Below are positions 18,794 to 57,786 of a stretch of 57,786 nt of DNA, piece after piece; position 1 is the first letter of the stretch; each line of letters begins with the position of its first letter. Both the position numbers and the translations under genes were made by a program. The DNA lies in NCBI GenBank assembly GCA_036679645.1, contig JAZDCY010000037.1, forward strand, positions 1 to 57,786. The letters run 5' to 3'. The stretch comes from Gemmatimonadota bacterium. GTDB lineage: Bacteria > Gemmatimonadota > Gemmatimonadetes > Gemmatimonadales > GWC2-71-9. A model generated the notes under the pieces. It saw only the letters and a program-made list of their open reading frames with translations, did not search any database and was not told the origin of the DNA.

Positions 18794-18890
18794 TGGCGGG
18801 AGCGTGTGGGAATCGAACCCACCGGAGCCGCCGCAGGCGCCTCCCAACGGTTTTGAAGACCGCACGGACCACCAGACCCGATCCGCCCCC
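18794..18890 (-). tRNA. selC: tRNA-Sec(TCA)
   Basis: Anticodon arm GCGGT-CTTCAAA-ACCGT; 6-bp D stem CGGGTC/GGTCCG with a 4-nt loop; long variable arm; extended acceptor stem; G discriminator plus encoded CCA. Confidence 0.95.
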
Positions 18891-48007: not shown

Positions 48008-49030
48008 ATGCGGCGGATAACATTCTTGCTCCCGCTGGTGATCGGTATTGCGGGTGCAACGCTCAACGCGCGGGCCGAGGCCCAGGTACGCCCCCGCCCC
48101 CGCCCCATCCGACCCGCGCACACGTTCTCGATCGTCGCCGTCGATACCGTGACCGGCGAGATCGGCGCGGCGGTGCAGTCCCATTGGTTCAGCGTCGGGA
48201 GCATTGTCACGTGGGCGGAGCCGGGTGTGGGTGCGGTGGCGACCCAGTCGTTCGTCGACCCCAGCTACGGTCCGCGCGGGTTGTATCTCATGCGGACCGG
48301 AACACCCGCCCCGGAGGCGTTGTCGGCGCTACTGCGCGCGGATCCCGATTCGCAGGTGCGTCAGGTGGCAATGATCGATGCGGCGGGCCGCGTGGCGGCG
48401 CACACCGGATCGCGCGACATCCCCGCCGCCGGGCAGCACGTGGGCAATGGGTACTCCGTGCAGGCGAACCTCATGCGCAATGACCGCATCTGGCCGGCCA
48501 TGGCGCACGCGTTCGAGACGACCGAGGGCGACCTCGCCGCGCGCATGCTCGCGGCACTCGAGGCCGGGCAGGAAGCGGGGGGTGACATTCGCGGGCAGCA
48601 GTCGGCGGCGCTAGTAGTCGTGAGTGGCGATCCCGACGCCCAGCCCTGGGAACGCGTATTCGATTTACGAGTTGAAGATCATCCCACCCCCATTGCCGAA
48701 CTGCGGCGATTGGTGCACGTGGCTCGCGCCTACGCGGCGGCGACCGAGGGTGACAACTGGATGACCGTGGGCGAGGTGGATTCGGCGCTCGTGGCCTACC
48801 GGCGGGCGTCGGAGATCCTGCCGGACGAGGCGACGAACGGTGAGTTGATCTACTGGGTAGCCGTGACGCTTGCGGATTTGGGGCGCATCGATGAGGCGAT
48901 CCCCTTGTTCCGCCGGTCGTTTGCGCAGGACGAAAGTTGGATCGAGCTGTTACGCCGGCTGCCCGATGCGGGGTTACTCGGGGCCGACGAGGCTACGATT
49001 GAGCGGATTGTGCGGGAGGCGAGGAGATAG
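48008..49030 (+). CDS. DUF1028 (Ntn-hydrolase-like) protein with C-terminal TPR
   Basis: TFSIVAVD...GAVATQS...QANLM...AGGDIRGQQSAAL...DLRVEDH. Confidence 0.92.
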   Translation: MRRITFLLPLVIGIAGATLNARAEAQVRPRPRPIRPAHTFSIVAVDTVTGEIGAAVQSHWFSVGSIVTWAEPGVGAVATQSFVDPSYGPRGLYLMRTGTPAPEALSALLRADPDSQVRQVAMIDAAGRVAAHTGSRDIPAAGQHVGNGYSVQANLMRNDRIWPAMAHAFETTEGDLAARMLAALEAGQEAGGDIRGQQSAALVVVSGDPDAQPWERVFDLRVEDHPTPIAELRRLVHVARAYAAATEGDNWMTVGEVDSALVAYRRASEILPDEATNGELIYWVAVTLADLGRIDEAIPLFRRSFAQDESWIELLRRLPDAGLLGADEATIERIVREARR

Positions 49031-49067
49031 GTGCTCGGGTGCTCAGGGGCGCAGGTGCTCAGGGGGT
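49028..49067. repeat. Degenerate tandem octamer repeat (CAGGTGCT-like)
   Basis: taggtgct cgggtgct caggggcg caggtgct cagggggt. Confidence 0.6.
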
Positions 49068-49497
49068 GCGACAGTGATTGTGCGGTCGGTGGAGGCTTGG
49101 CGGCCGTGTGATAGATTCGTCACCGTGAGCGAGACGCGGTACTAGCCCGACGCATCTGGGACCTCAGGCAGCAAACGTTCCGGCAGAGTAGGAGCATGAC
49201 CGAGCCCCACGTCCCAAGTTAGCTCTGTGTCTTACGTTCGCCGCACGCCGGGCACCGCGCGAATGCCCTGGCCGGAACGGGTTGCCCGGCCGCGTCAGCA
49301 ATGCGGAAACGAACCCGATGGCGCGCGGCGGTTGATTCTGGCAGGCTCGTTTCGGATCGTCGGACTGTTGCGGTTCGCCCCACCCGGGCGCACAACTCCG
49401 AGACGCGAGCGAGCCACCGGCGATCATGGTGGTCAGCATCAGGCGTGACTAGGCGCCGCACGTACCGCCGTCGTCGTGACCGCCAGGGGGTTCGCGG

Positions 49498-50079
49498 TCA
49501 ACGAGCCGACTCAAGCAGGCACCCGTTGCAGGTTCGCACGTAGGCTGTAACGCAGCCACACTCCTCGAAATGATTCGCATCGCCTACTGCGGGACAGAGG
49601 CGAGCGCACCTCCGGTGAAACCACTCTGGGAGCCTGGGGGTCGTCGCCGCAGAGTCCAAATGAAGCAGAACTTCTATGACGTTCCCGTCGCGTTTGACGA
49701 GGATGCGGGCTCTTCCCTGACGGTCAATCTTTCTTTGGAGAAGTTGCCAGAAAGCTGTCGTCGTTGCGGTTCGGGATCTTTCGAGTCCAAGGATCGAGTC
49801 GCCTGGAGCTAGCCCCGCCCACCATCCCGGACCCCCGCTATCGACCGCCGCGACAACTAGCGTACCCATGCTGCCGGACTGATCGTCGTGGAGCTCAATC
49901 CCCGTGCGAACCGCGGCGTCACCGACATCGATCTCTGACTGGCATTGGATCAGGCCTATGGTCGCAACGAGCGTCGCGCCGATGGCAACGTGGGTTCTTA
50001 CCCATTGCGCGGGACGACGCTTCGTGAAGCGAGGGGTGCGGGAGCAGACGACGGATCCGCGAACTCGGCGATTCGGCAT
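49498..50079 (-). CDS. Membrane-anchored PDZ-domain protein with a Cys-rich C-terminal tail
   Basis: TM/signal segment; PDZ pattern GIEL...VVAAVDSGGPGWWAGLAPGDSIL...VKRDG; tail CARLC...ECGC...TCNGCLL. ATG is 1 nt after the upstream stop. Confidence 0.75.
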   Translation of the reverse strand: MPNRRVRGSVVCSRTPRFTKRRPAQWVRTHVAIGATLVATIGLIQCQSEIDVGDAAVRTGIELHDDQSGSMGTLVVAAVDSGGPGWWAGLAPGDSILGLERSRTATTTAFWQLLQRKIDRQGRARILVKRDGNVIEVLLHLDSAATTPRLPEWFHRRCARLCPAVGDANHFEECGCVTAYVRTCNGCLLESAR

Positions 50080-50080
50080 G

Positions 50081-51205
50081 TCAATTTCTGTCTCTCGGAG
50101 CGGGGCACGCTACACTACCCGAGACTTCAAATATCCCAATCGATTGCTCGCCCCACGAATCCTCCAGAACACCCGCGACGACGTCCTGCCACACCGTCAC
50201 ATGTTTGAGGGCGGCCGGAAGCAGCAGCGGCCGAAGGGCGCGCCCATCGACACTCCATCTGTCCCACTGCACCCACTCGGGGGTTTCCCAGTACGTCTTT
50301 GCAAGGATGGACCCGTCGCGGCTCCCGACCAACCCCCTCACCGACGGAAGGACCTCGGGAAACGACAGGTGTTGAGCCAAAGAAGAGTCCCCGAGATTCC
50401 GGGCAAAGAGGCTGCGATATTGATCCGACATTCGCACCCGAGTACTTCGCCCCCTGATTACGCGTTCGGTCGAGCCGTCGGGGGCGATGATGCGGATCGC
50501 ATACTCTTCGGTCGATAGGAGCGCAACTCGATCCGGAGCAACGGGGGCCAACATCGGGAACACGGCATATGGAACAGGCAGCTCCATCACTCGTCCTCGT
50601 AGCGTCGTCCGTCTTCCAATTACATGAACGAACTCCAGAAGCGTATCGGTCTGGCCTTCACCGATAGAAGATGCGACGACGACTCCTCCAAGCTCTTCAG
50701 GTGCCGCGCCGCGCCAGGGAGGCAAGACTGCGGCCACGACTCTGCCACCCGACGTCACGAGGGTGGCTGGGGTCCCCGGGAATAGAAGAGTCGCCATCGG
50801 GACCACACCTACGTGTTCGCCGGAGCGACTCCAGATCGTCAGACGACCGTTGGCGAGGTCCCGAAAAATGAGGTTCGTGTCAAGCCAACCAAGTTCCATT
50901 CCTCCTTGGAACTCCCTTGGACCAGAACCGCTGCGGCCACGGATCCAGAGCGCTCGCCCGAGAGAATCAAACGCCATGATCCGGTGAGTTCCCCCGTCAA
51001 GCACGAACACGCGCTTCGACTCATCCAGGACGAGTCCTGTTATCTGCACAAACGGGTCGGTGTCCGCACGCCCGGGGCCAATCGTCCGGACAAGGCGTAC
51101 GGTGCCGCATAGCGATTCGCCTAAGGAGGGTCGAGGAGAATCGCACGAAAAGACCGATCCGCACGCAGTCATTGCGACCGCGAGGAGGCGTAGCCTCAAG
51201 TACAC
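50081..51205 (-). CDS. 6-bladed beta-propeller (NHL-like) exported protein/lipoprotein
   Basis: Signal with Cys; RVFVLD...IMAFDSLG...GRSGSGPREF repeat signature. Confidence 0.82.
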   Translation of the reverse strand: MYLRLRLLAVAMTACGSVFSCDSPRPSLGESLCGTVRLVRTIGPGRADTDPFVQITGLVLDESKRVFVLDGGTHRIMAFDSLGRALWIRGRSGSGPREFQGGMELGWLDTNLIFRDLANGRLTIWSRSGEHVGVVPMATLLFPGTPATLVTSGGRVVAAVLPPWRGAAPEELGGVVVASSIGEGQTDTLLEFVHVIGRRTTLRGRVMELPVPYAVFPMLAPVAPDRVALLSTEEYAIRIIAPDGSTERVIRGRSTRVRMSDQYRSLFARNLGDSSLAQHLSFPEVLPSVRGLVGSRDGSILAKTYWETPEWVQWDRWSVDGRALRPLLLPAALKHVTVWQDVVAGVLEDSWGEQSIGIFEVSGSVACPAPRDRN

Positions 51206-51239
51206 GGATCGACTCTCGGGGCCTTTCAGGTCGCCGCTT

Positions 51240-51815
51240 TCAGTACGAACGCCTCGGTTCTGGACACGCCGCGAGCGCCTCGGCTGAATCGACGCTCGAA
51301 GAGGGACCCAGTACGTGCTTCACCACGCCCGCCCGGCCGAGAATCAGCGTCGTTGGGACCGCGAGAATGCCAAGGCGGGCGGCAACGGCCGAGGATGCCG
51401 TTCCGACGGCGTACGTGGAGAAGGAGAGTGCGTGCCGGCGAACAAAGCTGTCCGCCGACGCCCACTCTGAGAAAGAAATGCCGATCACGTTCCGCCGCCG
51501 CTCGGGGGCGAAATCAGTAGCCCACCTTGGAGCCAGCGCTTCACACGTGGCGCATGAAGGAGACAGAAACAGCACGACGGAGCACTCCGGCAGGTCGCGG
51601 AACGAGATGGTCAACGATCGACCGAGCCCACTGCGTGCAGTCAGCGTGTCCAGTTCCGCCCCGGCCTGGATCCACTCGGTACCCCCTGTTGCTCTCCTCA
51701 CCAACAGCAAGCCCTGGATGATTCCGCCGAGCACAAGAGCGGCAAGCAAAGCGGTCAGCCACCGCTGCTGGCCAGGAGTTGAGCTGCTACCCGTGCCCCG
51801 CTCAGGCGTTGCCAT
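51240..51815 (-). CDS. Membrane-anchored TlpA/ResA-like thiol-disulfide oxidoreductase
   Basis: TM helix; VVLFLSPSCATC (CxxC); cis-Pro loop AVPTTLILGRAGVV. ATG overlaps the peptide stop (TGATG). Confidence 0.85.
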   Translation of the reverse strand: MATPERGTGSSSTPGQQRWLTALLAALVLGGIIQGLLLVRRATGGTEWIQAGAELDTLTARSGLGRSLTISFRDLPECSVVLFLSPSCATCEALAPRWATDFAPERRRNVIGISFSEWASADSFVRRHALSFSTYAVGTASSAVAARLGILAVPTTLILGRAGVVKHVLGPSSSVDSAEALAACPEPRRSY

Positions 51816-52039
51816 CAGCCGGGGATAATCAGACACCCATTACAGGATTCGGCGCAAACCGTGCAGCAGCAGGACCAATCCGTGGGGTCTGACGCACACT
51901 GGCATTGGCACTTGCGGGCTGGATGTTCCGGCGGGCAACCTCCCTGTGCTAGAGTGGACGCCCTCAAACCGCCCGTCGCGAGCCCGATGTTGAGCAACGC
52001 GAAGGTGAGGACCAGCAGCCATTTAGTTCTTTTCCGCAT
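51815..52039 (-). CDS. Secreted 10-Cys peptide B (74 aa)
   Basis: GGAGG RBS; Sec-type signal; core CPPEHPARKCQCQCASDPTDWSCCCTVCAESCNGCLIIPG; paralog adjacent. Confidence 0.88.
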   Translation of the reverse strand: MRKRTKWLLVLTFALLNIGLATGGLRASTLAQGGCPPEHPARKCQCQCASDPTDWSCCCTVCAESCNGCLIIPG

Positions 52040-52119
52040 TTGGTGCCTCCGACATTAAGACTAGCCGCCATTGAGGCTTCGTGTGCGCCTGTGCGTGCCA
52101 CGTAGCCGCCGGGCCGATG

Positions 52120-52335
52120 TCAACCGGGAACCACCAGGCATCCATTGCATGAGGAGGCGCAAACCGAACAGCAACAGCCCCAGTCCGTGGGGTCTCCCGC
52201 ACACTGGCATTGACATTTGCGAGGAGGGTTCTCCGGGGGGCACGGATGCTGCGCAAACGCGAGGTTCCCTCCGGCGAGCCCAAGGTTGATGATCACGAAC
52301 GCCGTCACTAATAGCCAGCGAGTCTTGTCACGCAT
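52120..52335 (-). CDS. Secreted 10-Cys peptide A (71 aa)
   Basis: GGAGG RBS; signal ending AFA-Q; core CPPENPPRKCQCQCAGDPTDWGCCCSVCASSCNGCLVVPG. Confidence 0.88.
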   Translation of the reverse strand: MRDKTRWLLVTAFVIINLGLAGGNLAFAQHPCPPENPPRKCQCQCAGDPTDWGCCCSVCASSCNGCLVVPG

Positions 52336-52519
52336 AGCTGCCTCCAAGCTGGTGGTTCAACCGCAAGTGAAGCGCCGCGGCGAATCCTTGCTCCCGCAGG
52401 GCCTCGGGCCAGAAGATGCCCCGATACTGGGACATCGTGGGCGCTGCATCCCGCCACATTCGAAAACCGCCAGAACTCACCGTCCATCAACGTTCGGCTA
52501 TTCGGATCAATACGATTTG

Positions 52520-52596
52520 CATTGTCTTGAAGACAATGACCGTTTGCGCTGACCTGGTGCGCTGACCTCTTGCGCGGGGGGGGGGGGGGGAGATTC
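52520..52596. promoter_or_regulatory. Divergent control region: 9-bp inverted repeat, 13-bp-period direct repeats and a G15 tract
   Basis: CATTGTCTT-G-AAGACAATG (52520-52538); TGCGCTGACCT at 52545 and 52558, TGCGC at 52571; G15 at 52576-52590. Confidence 0.6.
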
Positions 52597-52630
52597 TACT
52601 TTACCGTAGCCGTCCCCGAGGACTTTCACG

Positions 52631-53110
52631 ATGTTGGTGCGGAAGCTCGTAGTGAGCCTGCTCAGCCAAGCCGCTGTTGCCGATCGCCGTGTGCACCGTG
52701 TGGTCGAGGCGCTGGCTGACCGACGAGGGCTCCTACGGAACGCCGACGACTTCGCTCGGGACCTCGGCTTCGGCTCGCGACACCAGCTTCACCATTGCCT
52801 CAAACGCCACCGTCTCCCGCCCATTCGCCGGCTCGCCGCCTGGATACGCCTCCTGACGATTGCCGTCGAGATGACCGAAAGCGGAATGAGCCTGGAAGAC
52901 ATTGCGTGGCGCGACGGTATCGATCCGTCGGTGGAACATCGCCGGGCCCGGCGGATACTCGGTGTATCGTTGGGCACCGCTCTGCAGAACGGCGTCGAGG
53001 GTGTCCTGGTCCGGATTTGGGAGGACTGGGCGCGGCACTTGGCAGCGGATCGTGATCCTGTGGCAGCACAGAGAGCAATCTCGCGTATCCTCCGTGACGC
53101 AAGCGCGTAG
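52631..53110 (+). CDS. AraC-type HTH regulator (DNA-binding domain only)
   Basis: ADDFARDLGFGSRHQLHHCLK...WIRLL...SLEDIAWRDGIDPS...RRILG double-HTH pattern. Confidence 0.7.
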   Translation: MLVRKLVVSLLSQAAVADRRVHRVVEALADRRGLLRNADDFARDLGFGSRHQLHHCLKRHRLPPIRRLAAWIRLLTIAVEMTESGMSLEDIAWRDGIDPSVEHRRARRILGVSLGTALQNGVEGVLVRIWEDWARHLAADRDPVAAQRAISRILRDASA

Positions 53111-53152: not shown

Positions 53153-53211
53153 CAGGCGCTCAGGCGCTCAGGCGCTCAGGCGCTCAGGCGCTCAGGCGCT
53201 CAGGTGCTCAG
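53153..53211. repeat. Tandem octamer repeat (CAGGCGCT)x6 + CAGGTGCT
   Basis: Six perfect units, one variant unit, then CAG. Confidence 0.95.
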
Positions 53212-54469: not shown

Positions 54470-54790
54470 TCAGCCCAGCGGCAACACCACCGCTGCAACG
54501 TCGACATGAGCCGGCACGACATTTCCCATCCCCCGGTCGAACGTCGCAAGCCGCCCTTCATGGCGCAGCGCGACGGCCACGAGGTGTGCCTCGGTCACCT
54601 GGCGGTGGCCGACGAGGCGCTCCGGGGCAATGAACTGGGACTGACAGAACGAAACGTCATCCGACCAAAACCGATGGCCGTCCAGCGCGGTGATCGGCGA
54701 TGGCTTCCGCGGGGCGCCGCAGCCGCGTGGTGCACGTGATTGGGCTACGCGAGCGCAATGAGCACGTTCACGTCCGAGCAGGACTGTCAT
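54470..54790 (-). pseudogene. vapC: vapC copy 3: +1 frameshift, TGG>TAG nonsense and internal deletions
   Basis: Clear nucleotide similarity to 57119-57556; the central part is missing. Confidence 0.88.
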
Positions 54791-54791
54791 G

Positions 54792-54885
54792 TCACTTGTC
54801 GAGCGCCGCCGGCACCATCTCCGGCGTGAGCGGAGGAGCATCAGGCGGCACGTCGAAGGTGGGAACGCCGTGCTCGCCGATTGGC
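54792..54885 (-). pseudogene. vapB: vapB 3' remnant
   Basis: IGEHGVPTFDVPPDAPPLTPEMVPAALDK* matches the C-terminus of 57558-57779. Confidence 0.85.
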
Positions 54886-54988
54886 TCGCCCGATTGACGC
54901 TGCGCTTGCCGTTGAGCATCAGCAGTAAGGCGTCGCATGTGAAGCGGGCGCCGGAACGCAGCCTGGCATCGTACGGCGAACTGTGCTA

Positions 54989-55002
54989 GGTTACATGTAA
55001 CC
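54989..55002. promoter_or_regulatory. Perfect 14-bp palindrome, probable mazEF operator
   Basis: GGTTACATGTAACC 18 nt upstream of the antitoxin start. Confidence 0.65.
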
Positions 55003-55019
55003 CTAAGCCGGAGTGCCCG

Positions 55020-55232
55020 GTGGGATCATCGAAACGTCCGAGCACGTCGCGGGATAAGGTCCGGGCCTACCGCGCACGGCTGCGGCAGCAGGGCTTGCGC
55101 CCGATCCAGATCTGGGTCCCCGACGTTCGCTCGCCGGGCTTCGCCCAGGAGGCGCATCGCCAATCCCTGGCTGCCGCGAACAGCCGACACGCTGCGGACG
55201 ATCAGGAATTCATCGACGCGATCTCGGAATGA
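55020..55232 (+). CDS. MazE-like antitoxin (DUF3018 family)
   Basis: RDKVRAYRARLRQQGLRPIQIWVPDVRSPGFAQEAHRQS; ATGA overlap with the toxin. Confidence 0.9.
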   Translation: MGSSKRPSTSRDKVRAYRARLRQQGLRPIQIWVPDVRSPGFAQEAHRQSLAAANSRHAADDQEFIDAISE

Positions 55233-55574
55233 AACGCGGAGGCATCTGGACGGTCGCGGGGGGCAAGGACTACGCCGGAAAGCCCCGGCCCGCCGTGATC
55301 ATCCAGGATGATCGCTTCAATCGTACGAGTTCGGTCACGCTGTGTGCCCTCACGTCCGACCCGACCGACGCTCCCCTTTTCCGCCTGCCCCGTCATACCG
55401 AGCGACCGCAATGGGTTGCACGCGCCCTGCCAGGTGATGGTGGACAAGATCACGACCGTGCCGAAGGTGAAACTGGGGTCCAGGATCGGCGACCTCGATG
55501 ATGAGGACATGCTTCGGCTCAACCGAGCGATTCTCGTGTTTCCCGGACTCGCTGGAGGCTCGGCGGTCGGCTAG
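55229..55574 (+). pseudogene. mazF: MazF/PemK toxin, frameshifted by one extra C near 55387-55390
   Basis: MKRGGIW...GKPRPAVIIQDD...APLFRLP in frame 1 continues as VIPSDRNGL...MVDKITTV...IGDL in another frame. Confidence 0.88.
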
Positions 55575-55624
55575 GTTACCGCCCGGTCAGTCAGGCACAG
55601 ACGCTCAGTTGCACAGACGCTCAG

Positions 55625-55663
55625 AAAAAGCAAACGCCCCGGAGAGCTATTCCGGAGCATTTG
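55625..55663 (-). terminator. Intrinsic terminator downstream of vapC copy 2
   Basis: CAAATGCTCCGGA/TCCGGGGCGTTTG stem with G-U pairs on the minus strand, then CTTTTT. Confidence 0.6.
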
Positions 55664-55728
55664 GCTGGACCGCGTAGCAGAATGCTGCCAAACGTCTAGC
55701 CGTCTAGTCCATTTCTCCCTACCCCCCC

Positions 55729-56107
55729 TCAGTCAAGCAGCAACACCACCCCGTCGGAGTCAACATGAGCCGGCACGACATCCCCCATCCCCCGGTCGAA
55801 CGTCGCAAGCCGCCCTTCATGGCGCAGCGCGAGGGCCACGAGGTGCGCATCGGTCACGTGGCCGTGGCCGATGATACGTTCCGGCGCAATGAACGAGGAG
55901 TGACAGAACGAAACGTCATCCGACCAAAACCGATGGCCGTCCAGTGCGGTGATCGCGCGGAGCACGGCGATGGCCTCCGCAGGCCGCTTCGCATCTGGAA
56001 TGACGCGCATGTTGGACGAGATCCGCACGAAACCGCTCTCGGTGACGGGGCACGTTGCCCACCCGTCGGCACGATGCGCCGTGAACCACTCGACCGCCGC
56101 CGCGTGG
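55729..56107 (-). pseudogene. vapC: vapC copy 2, 5'-truncated (lacks the DVNV catalytic Asp)
   Basis: Near-identical to 57119-57497; homology stops at 56107. A fortuitous ATG lies at 56127. Confidence 0.85.
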
Positions 56108-56287
56108 CTATGCCCGATGACGCTCATTGTTGCACTTCAAAGTTGATACTAAATGTCCCCCGCCGCGATCGCCCGGGTCCTCGGCCGCCATCGGTCCACG
56201 GGTAGCGTATCGGAGACGCTCGAGGTCACCGTCCGGGAGAATCCGGTCAGACAACTCGAGGTGGAACCCCGTACGGTGACCGCGCGC

Positions 56288-56515
56288 GCAAGATGTGTGG
56301 ATGAGTGAGCTTCGCGGCAATTCTCGATCTCGCGGAGGAACCGCTCCGGCCCCAACGTCGGCCAGCTCTGATCGCAACACTTTGACCGCGACTTTGCGAT
56401 GGTGGCGCACGTCCTCGGCCAGATACACGGTGGCCATGCCGCCCGCACCAATCTCCTTCTCTATGGAATAGCGATCCGCGAGCGCGTCGCGTAGCCGGCC
56501 GATGAGGTCAGACAT
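56288..56515 (-). pseudogene. Ser/Thr protein kinase N-terminal relic with frameshifts
   Basis: MSDLIGRLRDALADRYSIEKEIGAGGMATVYLAEDVRHHRKVAVKVLR / LGPERFLREIE / IAAKLTHPHIL across different frames. Confidence 0.85.
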
Positions 56516-56780
56516 GGGCCCAAGATACGGAGCGGAGGTGAAAGCCGCGAGCGCGCCCGGCTCCTCGATGGTGGCCGTGCCCGAGTGGTGCAGTTCGCGT
56601 AGGGACCGACGGCTCGCGAGGCGAGAGCTATTCCTGTCACCTCGCCACAAACTGATCCCCGCACGCAACAAAACGATACCGGCATCGGACCACCTCCCAC
56701 CCATCTTGCACTCGCGGTTTCGATGGAGACTTGTTGGGCCCGCGTCGCAATACCATGGCCGTCGAATCGAAGAAGTGGTG

Positions 56781-56864
56781 GCCGGCGTGGCGGAATTGGT
56801 AGACGCACAGACTTGACAAGTCTCGGAGCGCAAGCTCGTGTGGGTTCGAATCCCACCGCCGGCA
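56781..56864 (+). tRNA. Type II tRNA with a tRNA-Leu body and a GAC (Val) anticodon
   Basis: GCCGGCG/CGCCGGC acceptor; D arm GCGGAATTGGTAGACGC; anticodon loop TTGACAA; variable stem GAGC-GCAA-GCTC; T arm GTGGG-TTCGAAT-CCCAC; A73. Confidence 0.9.
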
Positions 56865-56948
56865 CCCACCGGACCACTTGCTTTGAACGCGGGGCCGAGC
56901 ATAGGTTTCAAGTACTTGTCAGGTCTGTGTAGCGTTTTCCGCTACGTC

Positions 56949-56992
56949 CGAAAGCCGAGGCTGGGGATTCCCTACCTCGGCTTTCGTTTTCT
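56949..56992 (+). terminator. Intrinsic terminator downstream of the tRNA
   Basis: 12-bp perfect stem CGAAAGCCGAGG/CCTCGGCTTTCG followed by TTTTCT. Confidence 0.7.
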
Positions 56993-57118
56993 ATCCCGCT
57001 ATCCGCGGTCCGTATAAAGACTCTAAGCGATGCGCAGACGACGAGTTCTGTGTTGCCGTCTGTGCGCGGGACGACGTCGGACGTCGCGGTAGAGGTTGGA
57101 CTCTTTCCCCTACTACCC

Positions 57119-57556
57119 TCAGTCCAGCAGCAACACCACCCTGTCGGCATCGACGTGAGCCGGCACGACATCTCCCATGCCCCGATCAAACGTTGCAAGC
57201 TGCCCTTCACGTTGCAGTGCAAGGGCAACGAGGTGCGCATCGGTCACTTGGCCGTGGCCGATGATACGCTCCGGCGCAACGAAAGAGGAGTGACAGAACG
57301 AAACGTCATCCGACCAAAACCGATGGCTGTCCAGCGCGGTGATCGCGCGGAGCACGGCGATGGCCTCCGCAGGCCGCTTCGCATCTGGAATGACGCGCGT
57401 GTTGGACGAGATCCGCACGAAACCGCTCTCGGTGACGGGGCACGTTGCCCATCCGTCGGCGCGATGCACCGTGAACCACTCGACCGCCGCCGCGTGGTGC
57501 ACATGATTGGGCCACGCGAGCGCAATCAGCACGTTCACATCGAGCAGGACCGTCAT
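57119..57556 (-). CDS. vapC: VapC PIN-domain toxin (mycobacterial Mtu_PIN-like), intact
   Basis: LLDVNVLIALAWPNHVHH, TCPVTESGFVRI, QVTDAHLVALA, LATFD. Confidence 0.93.
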   Translation of the reverse strand: MTVLLDVNVLIALAWPNHVHHAAAVEWFTVHRADGWATCPVTESGFVRISSNTRVIPDAKRPAEAIAVLRAITALDSHRFWSDDVSFCHSSFVAPERIIGHGQVTDAHLVALALQREGQLATFDRGMGDVVPAHVDADRVVLLLD

Positions 57557-57557
57557 T

Positions 57558-57779
57558 TCACTCGTCGAGCACTTCCCGCACCATCTCCGGCGTGAGCGGA
57601 GGAGCATCAGGTGGCACGTCGAAGATTGGAACGCCGTGCTCGCCGATCTGGGGCTCAGCGGGACGCAATCCTCGGCGGGCCAGATCGGAAATGACATCCC
57701 CGATGCTGCGGTTCTCCGTGGCAGCCAGGCTCCGGGCCGCCCGGAGGATGTCGTCATCCAACGTGAGCGTTGTTCGCAT
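57558..57779 (-). CDS. vapB: VapB antitoxin (RHH/CopG type)
   Basis: MRTTLTLDDDILRAARSLA...SIGDVISDLARRGL; stop is 1 nt before the vapC ATG. Confidence 0.92.
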   Translation of the reverse strand: MRTTLTLDDDILRAARSLAATENRSIGDVISDLARRGLRPAEPQIGEHGVPIFDVPPDAPPLTPEMVREVLDE

Positions 57780-57786
57780 CAAGGCA

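Follow-up and report, generated by a model that had tools for sequence, protein, structure and literature searches.

Within the 57,786-nucleotide stretch analysed here (contig JAZDCY010000037.1 of the Gemmatimonadota assembly GCA_036679645.1; hereafter the window), a PDZ protein carries a cysteine-rich C-terminal tail which, judged from shared residues and their spacing, very probably has a common ancestor with two small peptides encoded in the same operon. The protein belongs to a rare PDZ family that is marked by a conserved peptide-like tail, is tied to a specific peptide and to one TlpA clade, and appears to be undescribed.

Organization of the PDZ-tail cassette

The operon is read from the minus strand in the order peptide 2, peptide 1, TlpA-like gene, NHL-type propeller and PDZ-tail gene. 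Its features and the divergent candidate regulator are as follows.

49498..50079, minus strand: PDZ-tail gene, 193 aa, with an N-terminal hydrophobic segment, one HtrA-type PDZ domain, a linker and a six-Cys tail
49942..49986, minus strand: hydrophobic segment (residues 32-46), by hydropathy a putative signal peptide or membrane anchor
49651..49923, minus strand: PDZ domain (residues 53-143; Pfam PDZ_2, E 1.2e-4) with carboxylate loop T-G-I and invariant G60
49501..49629, minus strand: peptide-like tail (residues 151-193) with R156-x-C158-x3-C162, C174-G-C176 and C184-N-G-C187; predicted beta-hairpin 154-164/167-181
49516..49530, minus strand: CNGCL of the PDZ tail
50081..51205, minus strand: NHL-type beta-propeller, probable lipoprotein, not obligatory for the cassette
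51240..51836, minus strand: TlpA-like membrane-anchored thioredoxin-fold protein (Pfam AhpC-TSA, E 1.9e-5)
51815..52039, minus strand: peptide 1, 74 aa, with a signal-peptide-like N-terminus, a 10-Cys core and a strong RBS
52120..52335, minus strand: peptide 2, 71 aa from ATG, 68% identical to peptide 1, with 10 Cys and a strong RBS
52631..53110, plus strand: AraC-like HTH gene, divergent, candidate regulator (Pfam HTH_18, E 2.2e-6, below cut-off)

At one of the metagenome loci described below (L175), too, an HTH_18 gene lies ahead of the cassette. Pairing of the ribosome-binding sites with the anti-SD motif ranged from -9.3 to -12.3 for five peptide genes, compared with -3.0 to -6.9 for four PDZ genes whose starts are uncertain. 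A search for sigma-70 promoter-like sites found none. Between the peptide genes and the divergent AraC-like gene lies a run of 15 G (52576-52590) preceded by a 13-bp tandem repeat, together a possible phase-variable promoter element, and 8-bp tandem repeats of similar unit flank the cassette and regulator at 53153-53211 (7.4 copies) and 49029-49063 (4.4 copies). One sequencing run spans 49300-52700 in a single contig with zero differing letters or indels; it may be the source sample and is therefore not counted as independent confirmation of the region. The tail was also considered as a frameshift fusion with a dead peptide gene. This was rejected since no signal-peptide frame lies upstream of the tail and the tail is conserved, its retention in 12 other proteins arguing against a frameshift artefact.

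The PDZ tail and the peptides share a cysteine skeleton

The minus-strand ORF 49498-50079 (193 aa) ends exactly as quoted in the initial annotation of this DNA, and its tail has six cysteines (C158, C162, C174, C176, C184, C187), including a CxC (C174-G-C176). That annotation had also drawn attention to a CNGCL motif common to three products of the operon and had judged the sharing unlikely to be chance. Both observations stand: CNGCL occurs at 49516-49530 in the tail and at 51830-51844 and 52135-52149 in the peptides, and these are the only three occurrences in 8,099,072 six-frame residues of the 4.05-Mb genome, in which the shorter CNGC is found 13 times. As a conserved element the motif survives in part, with CxGC kept and the N and L positions free to vary: peptides can have V or Q, and tails T or L, in place of the Asn of CNGC, and only one of 13 tails retains the Leu that follows.

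The match between tail and peptide is longer than CNGCL, as the R-x-C-x3-C and C-x7-C-x2-C blocks are both in register. The skeleton R-x-C...C-x7-C-x2-C, a post hoc pattern whose complete counts are partly so by construction because it was defined on the same tail and peptide alignments, is common to 13/13 tails and 6/6 peptides and makes the proposal that the tail is a tethered relative of the peptide very likely. It is present in none of the 14 Cys-rich peptides from eight PDZ-less cassettes, loci at which no PDZ-tail was detected. Across the genome the skeleton is found in 22 of 72,691 ORFs, and its stricter CxGC form in five, three of them belonging to this operon. At all four further loci with flanking DNA, a tail-bearing PDZ protein lies beside a peptide with the same skeleton.

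Profile comparisons pointed the same way in one direction of search. Alignment of the PDZ-tail and peptide profiles by hhalign covered 34 columns in the same register (P 1.1e-4, probability 56%), and a peptide-only HMM searched against the 72,691 genome ORFs placed the window tail first among non-peptide entries (E 0.014); the reverse search with a tail HMM recovered no peptide in its best 45 matches (to E 3.6). Homology is thus likely, with modest statistical support. Cys-rich sequences match easily and these profile statistics leave some room for chance or convergence, but we consider that explanation next to negligible: composition-preserving shuffles yield the skeleton, albeit a post hoc pattern, in 0.3-1.7% of trials per peptide and 0.08-1.7% per tail, against all six peptides and all 13 tails observed, equally Cys-rich controls do not have it, and tail and peptide co-occur at 5/5 loci. 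Co-variation of each tail motif with its own peptide, which had been suggested as a check, was not seen; with only five loci and hence low power, 35 of 120 pairings score as well as the true pairs when Cys is left out and 43 of 120 when Cys is included.

A rare PDZ family with a conserved tail

A phmmer search with the PDZ-tail protein over 1.84 billion representatives returned 39 matches, comprising the query, nine short proteins aligned through the tail end, one spider repeat protein (P0003) whose resemblance to the tail was dismissed as chance, and 28 proteins whose best stretch ends before the tail end; three of these 28 were read and have no tail. The family as defined here contains 13 distinct proteins, namely the window protein and 12 others that are 23-31% identical to it. 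The L175 copy nearly equals P0012 and was counted once, and kinship within the set links P0005 with L173, and P0004 and P0016 with L178. The tail was the selection criterion for 11 of the 13, but not for the protein from G362, a genome found through its TlpA.

Invariant in the 13 tails are R156, C158, G175, C176, C184 and C187. Three tails have an odd Cys count (a seventh Cys), the tail C-termini are not conserved, and identity outside Cys is 0.36 for the tails and 0.32 for the PDZ core. Pfam PDZ, PDZ_2 and PDZ_6 match all 13 members at E up to 1 (best 4e-11), and the Gly of the carboxylate loop is invariant and preceded by a hydrophobic residue in 12, with the T-G-I of the window protein being the least canonical loop of all. 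An N-terminal hydrophobic segment is present in 12 members, and the thirteenth comes without its N-terminus. No trypsin-like protease domain was found among the Pfam matches of the 13 proteins (134-204 aa). The Trx7/PDZ (seleno)protein model NF041199 reached 19.1 bits over the PDZ part only, compared with the more than 300 bits and the thioredoxin-like domain needed for membership. Pfam, NCBIfam, PDB and the ESM Atlas gave no match covering the tail or the peptides; in the Atlas the whole protein fell into generic PDZ clusters at 0.89-0.90 and the tail alone had no usable match. Word-index protein searches returned only the query for the PDZ protein and nothing for peptide 1, and a profile search of this kind added no tail-bearing member.

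Peptide, PDZ-tail and TlpA are the constant partners

We examined metagenome contigs with a stricter tail pattern, which gave six loci, three of them real (L173, L175, L178) and three chance; the same pattern gave none in viral contigs, and with a looser pattern on genome contigs none of the matches listed (at least 119 stretches) was real by HMM or by eye. A search of 301 genomes with the TlpA-like protein identified the G362 cassette (E 3e-25), whose flanks hold a PDZ-tail gene and a peptide. Thus peptide, PDZ-tail and TlpA-like gene occur together at 5/5 loci with flanking DNA, in three different gene orders. The peptides at the three tail-selected metagenome loci were not themselves selected for, and all have the skeleton.

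The propeller is less constant. It follows in the window, L175 and L178, and L173 ends too early; in G362 there is none within 16 kb and one weak match genome-wide, on another contig (E 3.4e-7), compared with 17 in the genome of the window. Since G362 has the trio and no cognate propeller, PDZ-tail and TlpA are the only constant partners, and the earlier suggestion that the tail motif is a recognition tag for the propeller is weakened; the motif could still be a tag for the TlpA. Flanking genes of the G362 cassette (L045:5543-10983) are one for a copper amine oxidase, a divergent DsbA-like gene and one for an OmpR-type regulator. PDZ-tail cassettes are rare: overlapping samples of 201, 301, 401, 401, 10, 231, 71, 31 and 101 genomes, often with 8-48 candidates scored per genome, yielded one further carrier, G362. 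Of 31 genomes of G362's own genus one has the cassette, and the 101-genome sample held two distant TlpA genes, neither of them with a PDZ.

The TlpA-like protein has an N-terminal anchor, a thioredoxin fold, a CxxC and a conserved Pro. Its CxxC, a second Cys pair (C85, C191) and the Pro of a conserved VP, which we take to be the thioredoxin cis-Pro, are invariant at 5/5 loci. Against NCBIfam MauD it scored E 2e-4 and 20.9 bits, with a cut-off of 188.6. Matches of the propeller include SOQ1 and NHL proteins, and its PAM match is weak (E 3.3e-6 over two blades). PAL-type amidating lyases have conserved His metal ligands, and a three-sequence propeller alignment contains no invariant His; C-terminal amidation of the peptides was rejected on this ground although four of six end in Gly. 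No protease gene was seen in the cassettes, and no metal transporter or metal regulator at the loci read.

Peptide termini and cysteine pairing

In the six peptides R-x-C and C-x7-C-x-G-C are invariant. The L-I/V-I/V-PG-COOH ends that the initial annotation had taken as conserved are not: the peptides end IIPG, VVPG, CVIK, VVKD, STPG and EPEG, and the stretch after the last Cys differs in length among them by as many as 13 residues. We therefore regard it as highly improbable that, as proposed there, free peptide C-termini act as canonical PDZ ligands that displace the tail. The carboxylate loop of the PDZ is largely intact, and hydrophobic residues follow CxGC in most peptides so that trimming could expose such an end. 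Nonetheless the last encoded residues are G, G, K, D, G and G, none of them hydrophobic, whereas the canonical classes need a hydrophobic last residue (accessible text of PMC2891790). No protease gene was seen in the cassettes, and the tails' own C-termini are likewise unconserved.

Cysteines outside the invariant set are lost together. Numbered as in peptide 1, the G362 peptide is without C35 and C62, that of L175 without C46 and C59, and that of L178 without C48 and C57, and the G362 tail is without both C162 and C174. Contig C22 of the same genome encodes a peptide related to those of the window (hhalign E 5.4e-9) that is without both Cys of the terminal CxxC and retains the N-G between them. 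Its island has no PDZ gene and carries the propeller most closely paralogous to that of the window; the peptide adjoins a DsbA-like gene in place of a window-type TlpA, so that its CxxC loss cannot separate a link to the PDZ from a link to the TlpA. This island (L180, ~77900-86200 of C22) holds three propellers, the DsbA-like gene and two Cys-rich peptides. Read from such correlated loss, the pattern fits structural disulfides plus a separable CxGC pair, and a four-Cys metal site may exist in tail and peptide. The predicted pairs are C35-C62, C46-C59, C48-C57, C44-C58 and C66-C69 in the peptide (peptide 1 numbering) and C162-C174, C158-C176 and C184-C187 in the tail.

No peptide matched NVEALA (PF14055; 0/6 at E up to 1) or any other peptide family, and a PDB sequence search with the peptide profile gave no match. 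A conserved Asn inside the hydrophobic signal region, which we take to be reminiscent of NVEALA peptides, is present in peptides of the window, L045, L175, L178, L180, L046 and L047, related and unrelated alike. Haem binding by the tail was dismissed for want of a CxxCH. Selenocysteine was also set aside: the genome has tRNA-Sec (gene at 18794-18890, minus strand), yet every cassette Cys column translates as Cys and no Sec position was seen in the cassette, the motif patterns being TGY-only and such as would miss Sec variants elsewhere.

Structure prediction and a proposed tethered-placeholder model

AlphaFold2 modelling of the PDZ-tail protein from 11 sequences (mean pLDDT 81.7, pTM 0.69) gave the PDZ, a low-confidence linker (141-150) and the hairpin 154-164/167-181, with pLDDT 91-96 over residues 151-180. 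The PDZ alone makes up 0.47 of the chain and PDZ plus tail 0.67; set against these shares, the pTM, a summary figure, suggests that the tail is placed against the PDZ, and the hairpin is probably docked on its own domain. By VIA-align the PDZ is closest to MamP (PDB 4jj0, Z 12.0), with DegQ and DegP at 11.8, and the DegP/DegQ match has an rmsd of 1.7 A over 75-82 residues (Foldseek E 1e-4 to 1e-3); these fold searches used the full model and aligned only residues 53-143, barely covering the tail. While the tail model was confident, that of the peptide was uninformative (pLDDT 53). Modelling of a complex between the tail-less PDZ (52-146) and mature peptide 1 scored 0.02 against a mark of 0.32 and, its controls not having been folded, was not counted for or against binding.

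Together these observations led us to a tentative model, possible though with less than an even chance of being right, in which the tail is a trimmed peptide copy behind an HtrA-type PDZ that docks on its own protein and is displaced by the free peptide core, with TlpA setting the disulfides. The fused copy would fold as a hairpin, likely disulfide-stapled, and would dock in cis on the PDZ as a placeholder. All parts of the cassette would be exported, and the cassette TlpA would set or switch the disulfides. Free peptide, presumably in excess over the PDZ protein, would then swap with the tail through the common internal core and not through its C-terminus. The PDZ protein might thereby act as an extracytoplasmic holder or sensor of the peptide; since the cassette encodes no output domain, the downstream effect is the weakest step. 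That PDZ domains can bind internal beta-hairpins is illustrated by nNOS with syntrophin (accessible text of PMC2891790), and displacement of the tail by free peptide is plausible only through the peptide's internal core.

Consistent with the placeholder model, the tail invariants match the peptide invariants R, C, C, C, G and C in place, and the closest PDZ-less relative, the C22 peptide, has lost exactly the terminal CxxC. The invariance of the PDZ loop Gly and the stronger predicted RBS of the peptide genes may be counted on the same side. Against it, the tail HMM misses the peptides, pair-specific co-variation is not seen, and the window PDZ loop is the least canonical of 13; moreover, any two homologous disulfide domains would have Cys in common without having to share a binding site. 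A bolder form of the model, which we regard as doubtful, would make the protein a tethered-ligand receptor: an exported stand-alone PDZ whose gate is a homologue, within the same chain, of the disulfide peptide secreted as its ligand, with TlpA switching hairpin exchange via the CxGC thiols. In some genomes this PDZ protein would replace the propeller as the peptide's partner.

Alternative explanations for the shared skeleton

An unlikely alternative holds that the CxGC pair, or all four invariant Cys, form the working site of a redox or metal module in tail and peptide alike, with the same TlpA serving both. The peptide would bind Cu/Zn or buffer thiols in soluble form, with the PDZ-tail protein as its anchored version and the PDZ recruiting clients, so that no contact between peptide and PDZ is necessary. 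Such a module would account for the invariance of four Cys in all 13 tails and 6 peptides, the loss of the terminal CxxC as a unit in the C22 relative, the odd Cys count in 3/13 tails and the intact CxxC of the TlpA at 5/5 loci, and the absence of pair-specific co-variation is as expected for a common enzyme partner. In MamP, the best structural match, a PDZ is combined with small redox domains. G362 has its cassette beside a copper amine oxidase gene, and in Bradyrhizobium TlpA maintains ScoI and CoxB with reduced Cys pairs so that copper can be loaded (accessible text of PMC6669012). However, the variable Cys are gained and lost in pairs, which is typical of structural disulfides, more distant TlpA-like genes serve unrelated peptides without the motif, and no metal transporter or metal regulator was seen at the loci read; the single amine oxidase neighbour may be chance.

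The existence of the homologous domain both free and fused, together with tandem-duplicated peptide genes with strong RBS beside PDZ genes with weak RBS, would also suit co-assembly into an oligomer or surface polymer built mostly of peptides, with the tail as a minor homologous subunit that serves as anchor and brings in the PDZ; the predicted hairpin could extend a beta-sheet. We consider this quite unlikely, as nothing seen here points to oligomerisation, most peptide cassettes read have no such anchor (eight PDZ-less loci), and docking on its own PDZ would leave the tail less free. Shared ancestry alone, whereby an old fusion gave the PDZ a structural disulfide lid that remains in the operon through its need of the same TlpA for folding and does not touch the peptide, is very unlikely in our assessment. 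The tails' non-Cys identity (0.36) is barely above that of the PDZ core (0.32), and the missing pair co-variation and the failure of the tail HMM to find peptides fit such a history. What it leaves unexplained are the non-Cys Arg and Gly and the exact C-x7-C-x2-C spacing held in both, and the CxxC loss in the PDZ-less relative.

Additional features of the window

ARAGORN predicted an 86-nt tRNA-Val(GAC) with a long variable arm and a Leu-like body at 56781-56866 (plus strand); positions listed with it in the same genome are C47:755-840, C59:8761-8847, C7:211521-211606 and C11:12622-12707. Four more copies of the Leu-like body are 78-84% identical and have anticodon loops that read by eye GAC, GGC or CGC. 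A 75-nt Val(GAC) of normal type and a complete Leu set are present in the genome as well, and a tRNA family whose body and anticodon disagree is possible. Around this tRNA, within 54470-57782, PIN-domain/RHH toxin-antitoxin copies recur, some of them apparently partial, together with a MazE-like/MazF-like pair and a fragment resembling by eye the start of a Ser/Thr kinase.

Significance and comparison with known systems

Cassettes of peptide, thioredoxin-fold protein and propeller are unexplained, and their peptides are usually too variable to reveal key residues. The fused peptide copy described here flags them: one Arg, four Cys and a CxG/AC turn. Peptide, tail, PDZ and TlpA also make up a small soluble four-component system in which the peptide's partner and redox state can be tested. 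If the tail is indeed a displaceable cis-ligand, it would be a case of a bacterial PDZ without a protease, controlled by a disulfide peptide via an internal hairpin, for which we found nothing similar in the literature searched. A full-text search, judged by titles and abstracts, found no paper on the PDZ-tail family or on the peptide/thioredoxin/propeller cassettes, and the words cysteine, thioredoxin and Gemmatimonad are absent from the main text of a microbial PDZ survey (PMC6411480).

The PDZ itself (residues 53-143) has the predicted fold of the HtrA, DegP, DegQ and DegS PDZ domains, with the same x-hydrophobic-G-hydrophobic loop and a predicted extracytoplasmic location. In contrast to these proteases, the 13 members have no protease domain, and a single PDZ is followed by a Cys-rich hairpin. 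MamP, tied with DegQ and DegP in structural similarity over the PDZ, is arranged as an anchor, a PDZ and a small Cys-containing module, and its modules bind haem by CxxCH. No tail has the CxxCH of MamP and the magnetochromes, the residue after CxxC being L, R, A or S in 13/13.

To our knowledge the finger of nNOS has no disulfides and no free-standing finger gene. In the extended PDZ of nNOS an internal beta-hairpin fills the PDZ groove of syntrophin or PSD-95 and a free C-terminus is unneeded (accessible text of PMC2891790). That protein is from animals, cytosolic and binds in trans, and we draw an analogy and claim no homology. Bradyrhizobium TlpA, with ScoI/CoxB as partners, is also a membrane-anchored thioredoxin fold, and its CxxC acts on periplasmic Cys pairs (PMC6669012, in the text accessible); the match to MauD is weak. 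No Sco, CoxB or Mau genes were seen in PDZ-tail cassettes, and the MauD score is far below cut-off.

The nearest parallel in gene content is with DUF5128/NVEALA-type neighbourhoods and the NHLRC2/SOQ1 domain pair, which combine the same general set of Cys-rich peptide, thioredoxin fold and six-bladed propeller. Eight PDZ-less peptide loci were read, and the C22 propeller matches DUF5128. Further PDZ-less cassettes combine unrelated Cys-rich exported peptides with a TlpA-like protein, a propeller or both (L046, L047, L048, L049, L187, L188, L003), those of L187 and L188 representing a common two-peptide type that ends G-C-L-x-G-C. Compared with peptide/thioredoxin/propeller cassettes, the PDZ-tail cassette has an extra component, a PDZ protein that carries a peptide-like domain, and may be without the propeller, as in G362.
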